Origin: Escherichia phage 121Q
Direction: 5' to 3' (one strand)
Sequence record: NC_025447.1
Length of the DNA stretch: 64,000 bases
This document shows positions 27,192 through 27,408 of the stretch, piece after piece; the stretch's first letter is position 1; every line of letters begins with the position of its first letter. The notes beneath the pieces were generated by a model. The model did no database searches and was not told the DNA's origin. It saw nothing but the letters and a program-made list of their open reading frames with translations. The translations under genes and the position numbers were made by a program.

Positions 27192-27206
27192 TTATGGGTA
27201 TAATGT

Positions 27207-27374
27207 ATGAAAGATATTTTTACGATAGATGCTAATGTCATATATGATTTTTATCTTACTGGTGGTGTGAAGGTAACGGGTACTGTGATTGATGTTTGTG
27301 ATAATGGTATAATCTTAAGTGATGGTACTAGAGTTGTCCAAACACACATCATTATGTTTGTCCCACATGTATAA
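27207..27374 (+). CDS. possible Sm/Hfq-like small protein (55 aa)
   Basis: Not in ORF track (below 60 aa). Sm1-like pattern [17 protein letters not shown] and Sm2-like VVQTHII; weak SD; lies in a promoter-rich leader, so may be non-coding. Confidence 0.25.
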
Positions 27375-27399
27375 ATTTTTGGAACAAAACAGAAAAGTG

Positions 27400-27408
27400 T
27401 GCTATAAT
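27400..27408 (+). promoter_or_regulatory. extended -10 promoter element
   Basis: TGTGCTATAAT; TTGGAA lies about 18 bp upstream. Confidence 0.5.

Follow-up and report, generated by a model that had tools for sequence, protein, structure and literature searches.

The window analysed here is a stretch of 64,000 nucleotides from Escherichia phage 121Q (NC_025447.1), which belongs to the genus Asteriusvirus and is a jumbo coliphage of the RaK2 type. It is closest to phage phAPEC6 (97.9%) and has about 96.5% identity to PBECO4 and its relatives over 2.1 kb. We studied a 55-aa open reading frame between nrdB and a 77-aa gene, which a sequence-only reading had described as an unannotated ORF with a possible Sm/Hfq-like product. 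The features of the locus are as follows:

26032..27156, plus strand: nrdB, the gene next upstream, for the small subunit of class Ia ribonucleotide reductase (ORF list; nrdB in all relatives)
27169..27194, plus strand: intrinsic-terminator-like hairpin and T run, between the nrdB stop codon and the 55-aa gene (terminator scan)
27196..27199, plus strand: weak Shine-Dalgarno-like GGGT, 7-8 nt 5' of the ATG (read from the sequence)
27207..27374, plus strand: coding sequence of the 55-aa protein with predicted Sm/Hfq fold, ATG start, stop codon TAA at 27372-27374; family of PBECO4 gp470, CBB gp306 and phrog_17251
27379..27408, plus strand: putative promoter of the downstream genes, TTGGAA, 18 nt and extended -10 TGTGCTATAAT (promoter scan)
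27437..27670, plus strand: 77-aa gene, phrog_16437, downstream, a constant neighbour of the Sm-like gene (ORF list)

The ORF, its ATG start and its 55-aa translation were found exactly as that reading had quoted them; its description as unannotated had to be corrected, as the gene is annotated in many records and absent only from some. The counterpart in PBECO4 is gp470 (YP_009150784.1), labelled 'membrane protein', the counterparts in many GenBank records are called 'hypothetical protein', and the protein is included in phrog_17251 (E=1e-31), for which PHROGs gives the label 'membrane protein'. The annotations of phAPEC6, G17, slurp01 and the GenBank RaK2 entry are without the gene. By tblastn, 69 phage records were found to carry the ORF at 41-100% identity, including those of Asteriusvirus, Alcyoneusvirus (RaK2, K64-1), Eneladusvirus (Serratia BF, Yen9-04 and the Erwinia pEa_SNUABM phages), Mimasvirus (CBB, XbC2), Kaldavass and Cronobacter phages. 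A profile search of 5.8 billion proteins added 42 sequences of the family, and the identity of metagenomic relatives goes down to about 30%. The family is small, since only 27 matches came to light when 1.84 billion cluster representatives were searched exhaustively with a profile. Within the window, a six-frame translation yielded one weak match (E=0.006), antisense in a 236-aa gene at about 12.5 kb, and this candidate paralogue was rejected as spurious.

The comparison of relatives bears directly on the alternative that the sequence-only reading had left beside its proposal, namely that the region is a non-coding leader. In that case it would carry transcription signals only, and the ORF would be there by chance. 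A terminator and promoter-like elements are indeed present in the region and the Shine-Dalgarno sequence is weak, but the reading frame was found to be kept in relatives with mostly synonymous substitutions. By the Nei-Gojobori method, 9 synonymous and 0 non-synonymous changes separate the window ORF from that of UE-S1, 5 and 0 separate it from that of PBECO4, and 16 and 5 separate the genes of Kaldavass and XbC2, while dN/dS was 0.05 to 0.37 for more distant pairs. Given about 22% synonymous sites, we calculated that nine changes out of nine would be synonymous by chance with a probability of about 1e-6. In the alignment of 42 homologues there are zero indels across residues 2-53 (a 52-aa core), and both the frame and this core are preserved down to about 30% identity. 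Moreover, the interval 26900-27700 holds no meaningful Rfam family, the sole match of the scan being a meaningless snoRNA (E=0.25). The substitution pattern indicates that the gene is under strong purifying selection. The ORF at 27207..27374 is almost certainly a real protein-coding gene of RaK2-like jumbo phages, and the non-coding leader was rejected on the comparative data, with a probability that we regard as practically nil.

The nrdB stop codon lies at 27154-27156, and at every locus examined the order of the genes is nrdA, nrdB, the 55-aa gene and the 77-aa gene of phrog_16437. The product of the latter is acidic in its N-terminal half and ends in a strongly basic tail, and GGAG lies upstream of its gene at 27427-27430. 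Next there follows the gene of a MazG/PRA-PH-type NTP pyrophosphohydrolase, usually preceded by that of a 125-134-aa 'virion structural protein' (phrog_16130), with DHFR, RNase H and helicase further along the block. Six distant members from the exhaustive search (30-37% identity) sit in the same block. The 55-aa gene is part of a block for replication and nucleotide metabolism that RaK2-like jumbo phages conserve, and its family is confined to one phage lineage, in which it is inherited vertically with the block. Because the family is confined in this way and the block is inherited whole, the adjacency to nrdB is weak evidence of a functional link.

The terminator-like element between nrdB and the 55-aa gene consists of a stem-loop with 8 bp (27169-27187) and the T run TTTTCTT (27188-27194). 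When the whole 53-nt interval from nrdB to the ATG was folded with ViennaRNA, a value of -11.5 kcal/mol was obtained, and the minimum free energy structure adds an outer 5-bp helix around the 8-bp hairpin. All 13 of the 13 loci have a hairpin and a U run here, although the sequences of the stems are unrelated, and the energies of the interval, again folded as a whole, were -7 to -17 kcal/mol. The hairpin is G+C-rich, and the G17 and UE-S1 records annotate a terminator. Downstream of it, the weak Shine-Dalgarno sequence pointed out by the sequence-only reading reads GGGT in the window, and relatives have TGGA or a complete GGAG there. The promoter-like elements that had been placed at 27197-27204 (GGTATAAT), 27370-27376 (TATAAAT) and 27398-27408 (TGTGCTATAAT) are all present; the TGnTATAAT after the ORF proved to be conserved, while GGTATAAT did not, and the latter, which is also too near the ATG to serve it, was discarded as a promoter of the ORF. 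The TGnTATAAT core 3' of the gene was kept in most relatives, several of which also have a TGAAAC-type -35-like element upstream of it, and in the window the promoter scan gave 10 of 12 matches with the TG extension. This promoter at 27379-27408 resembles the 'divergent RpoD-like' class of phage CBB, a class with an enrichment ahead of genes for DNA synthesis (PMC5259590).

Because the 55-aa gene directly follows a conserved terminator and directly precedes the promoter of the next gene, we infer from the arrangement of these signals that it is probably expressed by terminator read-through. Read-through of the nrdAB unit past the terminator would probably be its sole transcription and would result in an attenuated dose and an early or middle timing of the protein, which would be translated from its own Shine-Dalgarno sequence, weak in the window and GGAG in relatives. 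Co-transcription with the genes upstream is also suggested by one metagenomic relative that has no terminator and in which another ORF is inserted upstream, its stop codon overlapped by the ORF of the family.

The AlphaFold2 monomer model, computed with the 42-sequence alignment, had a pLDDT of 92.7 and a pTM of 0.74. Its strands comprise residues 12-17, 21-31, 34-37, 42-44 and 48-54, with a 3-10 turn at 45-47; DSSP assigned no helix in the model, and residues 1-11 are coil. A Foldseek search of the whole PDB showed that the best 50 matches were all Hfq (E of about 4e-3, TM of 0.71 to 0.80, 15-33% identity), and examples of comparable Hfq structures are PDB 6gwk, 4y91, 5szd and 4pno. Among the BFVD viral models, the CBB homologue alone was significant (TM 0.87), which is an independent model with the same fold, and no viral protein named Hfq was found among these matches. 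The model suggests that the 55-aa product is very probably a bare Sm-fold barrel of five bent beta-strands, of which the bacterial Hfq proteins are the closest solved relatives. The structure prediction that the sequence-only reading had put forward as a check thus returned an Sm-like fold with high confidence, which bears out the Sm/Hfq-like reading for the fold only; the other check, a reading frame kept in related phages, had likewise come out in its favour. Several features of the Sm/LSm fold superfamily (Mura et al. 2013, PMC3710371) were also looked for and found in the predicted barrel, while the N-terminal helix, common in the superfamily, and a match to the Pfam LSM or Hfq profile were not found. 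According to that paper, a glycine in beta2 and an aspartate in L3 are the most characteristic Sm sequence features, the N-terminal helix is inessential to the fold, and loops L2, L3 and L5 line the ring lumen (PMC3710371). In the 55-aa family, G25 (40/42), halfway along beta2, corresponds to what the paper calls the 'strictly conserved Gly in beta2' (PMC3710371), and D32 (32/42) lies in L3 and is aligned to Hfq D40. The parts of the protein were mapped to the DNA as follows:

27210..27239, plus strand: N-terminal segment, aa 2-11, with the family motif D-I-F-T-F-D-P, highly conserved, predicted coil
27240..27299, plus strand: beta1 (aa 12-17) and beta2 (aa 21-31), with pivot G25 in the middle of the bent beta2 (model)
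27300..27317, plus strand: loop L3 (D32-N33-G34) and beta3 (aa 34-37), with the invariant G34 aligned to Hfq F42
27330..27368, plus strand: beta4 (42-44), L5 with a 3-10 turn (45-47) and beta5 (48-54) (model, column counts)

Across the 42 sequences, Y13, G34 and F51 are invariant and the hydrophobic strand positions are conserved. In the region of residues 42-54, which corresponds to the Hfq motif MVYKHAISTVVP, most relatives carry HIPTDKILYFVP. H or R occupies position 42 in 41 of 42 members and K or H occupies position 47 in 38 of 42, with I48 found in 41 and P44 in 33. A polar cluster in L3 and L5 is kept, which comprises D/E29, D32, N/D33, G34, H/R42, P44, T45, D46 and K/H47, and Y16, which corresponds to Hfq Y25, is variable. 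All 42 members are acidic, with net charges of -1 to -7 and pI values of 4.1 to 6.0 (median 4.54).

These properties are difficult to reconcile with a small integral membrane protein, which is what the RefSeq and PHROGs labels would imply. The label 'membrane protein' recurs in PBECO4, CBB, Serratia BF, Yen9-04 and phrog_17251, TMHMM was used in the CBB annotation (PMC5259590), and I, V, L and F are abundant in the protein. However, hydropathy windows revealed no hydrophobic transmembrane segment of about 20 residues, as the best 19-residue Kyte-Doolittle mean was 0.7 to 1.5 and every such window contained charged residues; the hydrophobic positions alternate as in beta-strands, and the whole chain was modelled with high confidence as a soluble beta-barrel. 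We find the membrane reading scarcely credible, and in view of the model the label is regarded as an error that spread from the CBB annotation. The gene provides a correction of a label copied through RefSeq and PHROGs, and it exposes gaps in annotation.

The relation of the family to Hfq at the sequence level was assessed by profile methods. With the family profile, Listeria Hfq was matched at E=0.34, the match covering profile columns 18-60 and thus the whole Sm domain, and a broader profile matched Neisseria Hfq at E=0.64 and the C-terminal domain of the M. jannaschii biotin ligase at E=0.1; the HMMER values against Hfq ranged overall from E=0.34 to 0.68. With hhalign, a five-sequence Hfq alignment gave P=4.5e-4 over 45 columns in whole-Sm-domain register, and the probability against Hfq was 33-52% (P=1.4e-4 to 4.5e-4). 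When single sequences were used, P was 1.4e-4, 4e-3 and 0.036 for the Hfq of E. coli, B. subtilis and S. aureus, respectively, in comparison to about 0.2 for the BirA C-terminal domain, Rof and T4 Frd.2. A core-trimmed rerun of hhalign without realignment scored 24.3, in comparison to a mean of 9.8 (sd 2.3) for column shuffles, and 1 of 300 shuffles reached that score. No Pfam match was obtained at E<=10 for the window protein, and 10 members gave unrelated chance matches only, among which Hfq and LSM were absent; a PDB sequence search with the single 55-aa protein gave a chance match only. The profile comparisons point to a sequence relation to Hfq that is weak but specific, with a similarity that stays below conventional significance. 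The aligned pairs (55-aa protein/Hfq) include Y16/Y25, G20/G29, K22/K31, G25/G34, D32/D40, H47/H57, I48/I59 and P53/P64, and the alignment that the sequence-only reading had made by eye (YLxGGxxVxG with YLVNGIKLQG; THII with KHAI) is in the register found independently by HMMER and hhalign. As to the biotin ligase, its C-terminal SH3/Sm-like domain (PDB 2ej9) is part of a larger enzyme, unlike the 55-aa protein, and the E. coli BirA C-terminal domain gave no hhalign signal (P=0.18); we take this match as a common small-barrel sequence pattern and not as a relationship.

Bacterial Hfq is an Sm-like RNA chaperone, a homohexamer to which U-rich and A-rich RNA binds and which accelerates the annealing of RNA. 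The proximal uridine pocket of Hfq is made up of Q8, Q41, F42, K56 and H57, its rim of R16, R17 and R19, and its distal face includes Y25, I30 and K31. In comparison to Hfq, the 55-aa protein is without the N-terminal helix and thus without Q8 and the R16/R17/R19 rim, the conserved and hydrophobic DIFTFDP segment standing where Hfq has this helix, and it is also without the C-terminal tail. At the position of F42 the family has the invariant G34, and at that of K56 there is D46 in 29 of 42 members and T in the window protein, so that only Q41 (N/D at 33) and H57 (K/H at 47) are kept in kind from the pocket. The Hfq motif [YF]-K-H-A-[IV] was not found in the family, as the window protein has Q45-T46-H47, a gap and I48, and most relatives have T-D-K and I; the counterpart (QTH-I or TDK-I) is one residue shorter than the YKHAI of Hfq. 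The Sm core of E. coli Hfq has a net charge of +4 and a pI of about 10, whereas all 42 family members are acidic. Judged by the residues that define Hfq, the 55-aa protein is neither a canonical Hfq nor a member of that family, and the model and alignment together describe it as a novel version of the Sm fold that is acidic, has no helix and is restricted to one lineage.

As for what such a barrel might do, the explanation towards which we lean overall, if only slightly, is a small Sm ring that is expressed by read-through and carries a ligand site at L3 and L5. The predicted monomers would join edge-to-edge, beta4 to beta5', as in other Sm proteins, and in beta3 and beta5 either face bears hydrophobic residues, which fits a buried interface and is suggestive of a ring. 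The ring would hold a ligand at the polar cluster of D29, D32-N33-G34, H/R42 and T45-D46-K/H47, which is the spot where Hfq and Sm rings grip uridines near the pore, and the likeliest ligand would be a U-rich RNA 3' end or a nucleotide. That the protein binds RNA or a nucleotide through such a ring is, on the basis of the model, a tentative proposal that falls somewhat short of probable. A canonical sRNA-mRNA matchmaker role was rejected, since the helix, the basic rim, F42 and K56 are absent and the protein is acidic. We also observed that P44, which lies in beta4 in 33 of 42 members, could weaken the beta4-beta5' contact, counter to a ring. The favoured explanation is further weakened by the acidity of all 42 members, by the loss of most residues of the proximal pocket, by the failure of the Pfam Hfq and LSM models to match, and by the weak Shine-Dalgarno sequence of a gene situated behind a terminator.

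A close rival, although on the whole doubtful, is that the acidic module binds a host protein rather than RNA and serves as a decoy or inhibitor. As a mimic or poison subunit, it might cap the basic ring of host Hfq or assemble together with it, or it might block an RNA-binding site as Rof does on Rho. Rof (YaeO) is an acidic Sm-like inhibitor of Rho, but as a structural match to the 55-aa protein it ranks below Hfq and Lsm and has extra elements, and profile similarity to it is absent (P=0.26). Many Sm-fold modules are without RNA binding, examples being MscS, biotin ligase, Edc3, Gemin6/7 and Naa38 (PMC3710371). It is distinctly unlikely, in our estimation, that RaK2-like jumbo phages carry a strongly diverged Hfq of their own, in the form of a stripped, acidic, helix-less ring that competes with or replaces host Hfq. 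Such a copy may derive from an enterobacterial host gene, as the best sequence signal was that of E. coli-type Hfq, and it could act as a dominant-negative that disables host sRNA regulation or as a second genome gate supplied by the phage. In the bacteria that these phages infect, regulation by small RNAs has Hfq as its central hub, and a core jumbo-phage gene that is predicted to fold like Hfq without the RNA-binding chemistry of Hfq would be a test case for imitating, replacing or jamming that hub.

We give less weight still to an accessory factor of the nucleotide-metabolism module, acting on ribonucleotide reductase or the MazG-like pyrophosphohydrolase, for example as a small acidic barrel with a nucleotide or a metal as its ligand, or one that docks on NrdB, which we consider improbable. 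Even the most divergent members have the gene right after nrdB, with the MazG-like enzyme two or three genes further on, it would be co-transcribed with nrdAB if read-through occurs, and its acidic and His cluster (D29, D32, N33, H42, D46) is conserved; E. coli yfaE, which follows nrdB, is a positional analogue. However, the whole block is syntenic within one lineage and the adjacency has little independent weight, nrdB and the gene have a terminator between them at 13 of 13 loci, and no Sm-fold partner of ribonucleotide reductase is known. A ferredoxin like YfaE was ruled out, as there are no conserved cysteines in the 42 members. Very improbable is a morphogenetic role, in which the protein would be a phage-made stand-in for host Hfq at the neck as in the T4-type second 'genome gate'. 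In T4, the Hfq hexamer of the host is borrowed as a second genome gate that sits transiently beneath the neck protein gp14 and plugs the DNA-filled head; a positive face of Hfq there meets a negative one of gp14, with Hfq K31, Q33, T49, S65 and R19 at the interface (PMC12929587, 2026). The 55-aa protein, in contrast, is acidic and does not keep these residues: R19 has no counterpart, T49 of Hfq falls in a loop that is deleted here, and K22, aligned to Hfq K31, is kept in 12 of 42 members only; moreover, its gene lies in the replication block and not in the late block, and a gp14 homologue was not reported for CBB. The main text of the CBB paper, where the virion proteins identified by MS are tabulated, nowhere names the homologue CBB_306. 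This absence fits a non-structural or transient role, and MS readily overlooks proteins of such small size.

With regard to known systems, a tblastn search of 50,697 phage records with E. coli Hfq found no convincing Hfq gene, the matches being bacterial contigs, contigs of uncertain origin and one unannotated faecal contig, and a search of the literature covered here, which included RaK2-like transcriptomes, found no report of phage-encoded Hfq, of Hfq in jumbo phages or on the 55-aa gene. The precedents for viral Sm-like proteins are two, a cyanophage protein and the T4 LSm-like family. The former, published in 2009, is a virus-derived Sm protein without the N-terminal helix according to its citation in PMC3710371. 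The latter comprises GoF, MotB.1 as well as Frd.2, phage proteins whose LSm-like fold was recognised by AlphaFold, whose function is unclear and for which no confident multimers were obtained; they have 13-17 kDa and two domains and are nearest to FeoA-type SH3 domains, with Hfq as 'another close relative' (PMC12152347). The 55-aa protein has in common with them that it is phage-encoded and has a helix-less, five-stranded Sm/SH3-like barrel recognised by AlphaFold. It differs in being a bare single-domain barrel with Hfq as the top match, nearer in structure to Hfq than to the FeoA-type barrels. Our T4 sequence comparison covered Frd.2 and neighbouring small T4 proteins, and no sequence similarity to Frd.2 and the small nrd-frd ORFs of T4 was found (hmmsearch; hhalign P=0.23 to 0.31). 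T4 Frd.2 lies in the frd-td-nrd nucleotide-metabolism region, as the 55-aa gene adjoins nrdB. Phage Sm-like proteins were thus known before, and on the strength of its model the 55-aa protein appears to be the most Hfq-like among those compared here.

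The results showed that a hairpin followed by a U run lies 3' of nrdB (27169-27194 in the window) and is kept at the same place in all 13 of the 13 loci compared (relatives among L001-L020), where the Sm-like gene always starts 15-25 nt downstream of it. The stem sequences are entirely different among these loci, and the conservation is one of structure, not of sequence. A T4-late-promoter-like TATAAAT was also noted at 27152-27158, overlapping the nrdB stop codon and constrained by the nrdB coding sequence, with a second at 27370-27376 overlapping the stop codon of the small ORF.

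Directly after the small ORF, a promoter was identified whose extended -10 is kept in most relatives:

27379-27408, promoter with an extended -10 element, TGnTATAAT

The comparison of this promoter region covers the intergenic regions of L004, L010, L011 and L023, and in several relatives a TGAAAC(G/A)-type -35-like element is found upstream of the extended -10. The window promoter resembles the 'divergent RpoD-like' class reported for phage CBB, which is enriched before DNA-synthesis genes (PMC5259590), and this promoter type is possibly a middle-type promoter class of RaK2-like phages.

The gene downstream was given in the mechanical ORF list as an 87-aa frame starting at ATG 27407 (27407-27670), a start codon that falls within the conserved -10 element (TATAAT, 27403-27408). 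The start at ATG 27437 has a GGAG Shine-Dalgarno sequence at 27427-27430 and gives a 77-aa product that matches phrog_16437 over its full length. The N-terminal half of this product is acidic, whereas its tail (23 residues, letters not shown) is strongly basic. The 77-aa gene invariably lies downstream of the Sm-like gene.

Members of the Sm-like family are named 'membrane protein' in the following entries:

PBECO4, gp470
CBB, gp306
Serratia phage BF, gp303
Yen9-04, g301
PHROG family of the Sm-like gene, phrog_17251

The PHROG category of this family is 'moron, auxiliary metabolic gene and host takeover'. Both the name and the category appear to derive from a transmembrane-predictor call that was then copied across RefSeq records, and neither is supported by hydropathy or by the structure model.

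In the metagenomic relative L024 (1-5177), nrdA carries an intein-like insert, nrdB is broken into two pieces, and a 258-aa ORF is inserted upstream of the Sm-like gene, whose ATG overlaps the stop codon of the inserted ORF, with no terminator present. In other relatives (L020, L008-L010), a 254-aa ORF lies between nrdA and nrdB. These extra ORFs and inserts in the nrd operon look like mobile-element insertions.

Among the published early proteins with an LSm-like fold is T4 Frd.2 (PMC12152347):

11144-11530 of the T4 genome (L025), frd.2, in the frd-td-nrd nucleotide-metabolism cluster

Its position in that cluster parallels that of the Sm-like gene beside nrdB, although the two proteins share no sequence similarity. 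Separately, the product of MT835489.1 10134-10343, on a 63-kb unannotated 'Bacteriophage sp.' contig from human faeces, has 47% identity to E. coli Hfq across 96% of the Sm core, and the gene could be either a genuine hfq carried by a phage or a piece of bacterial DNA.
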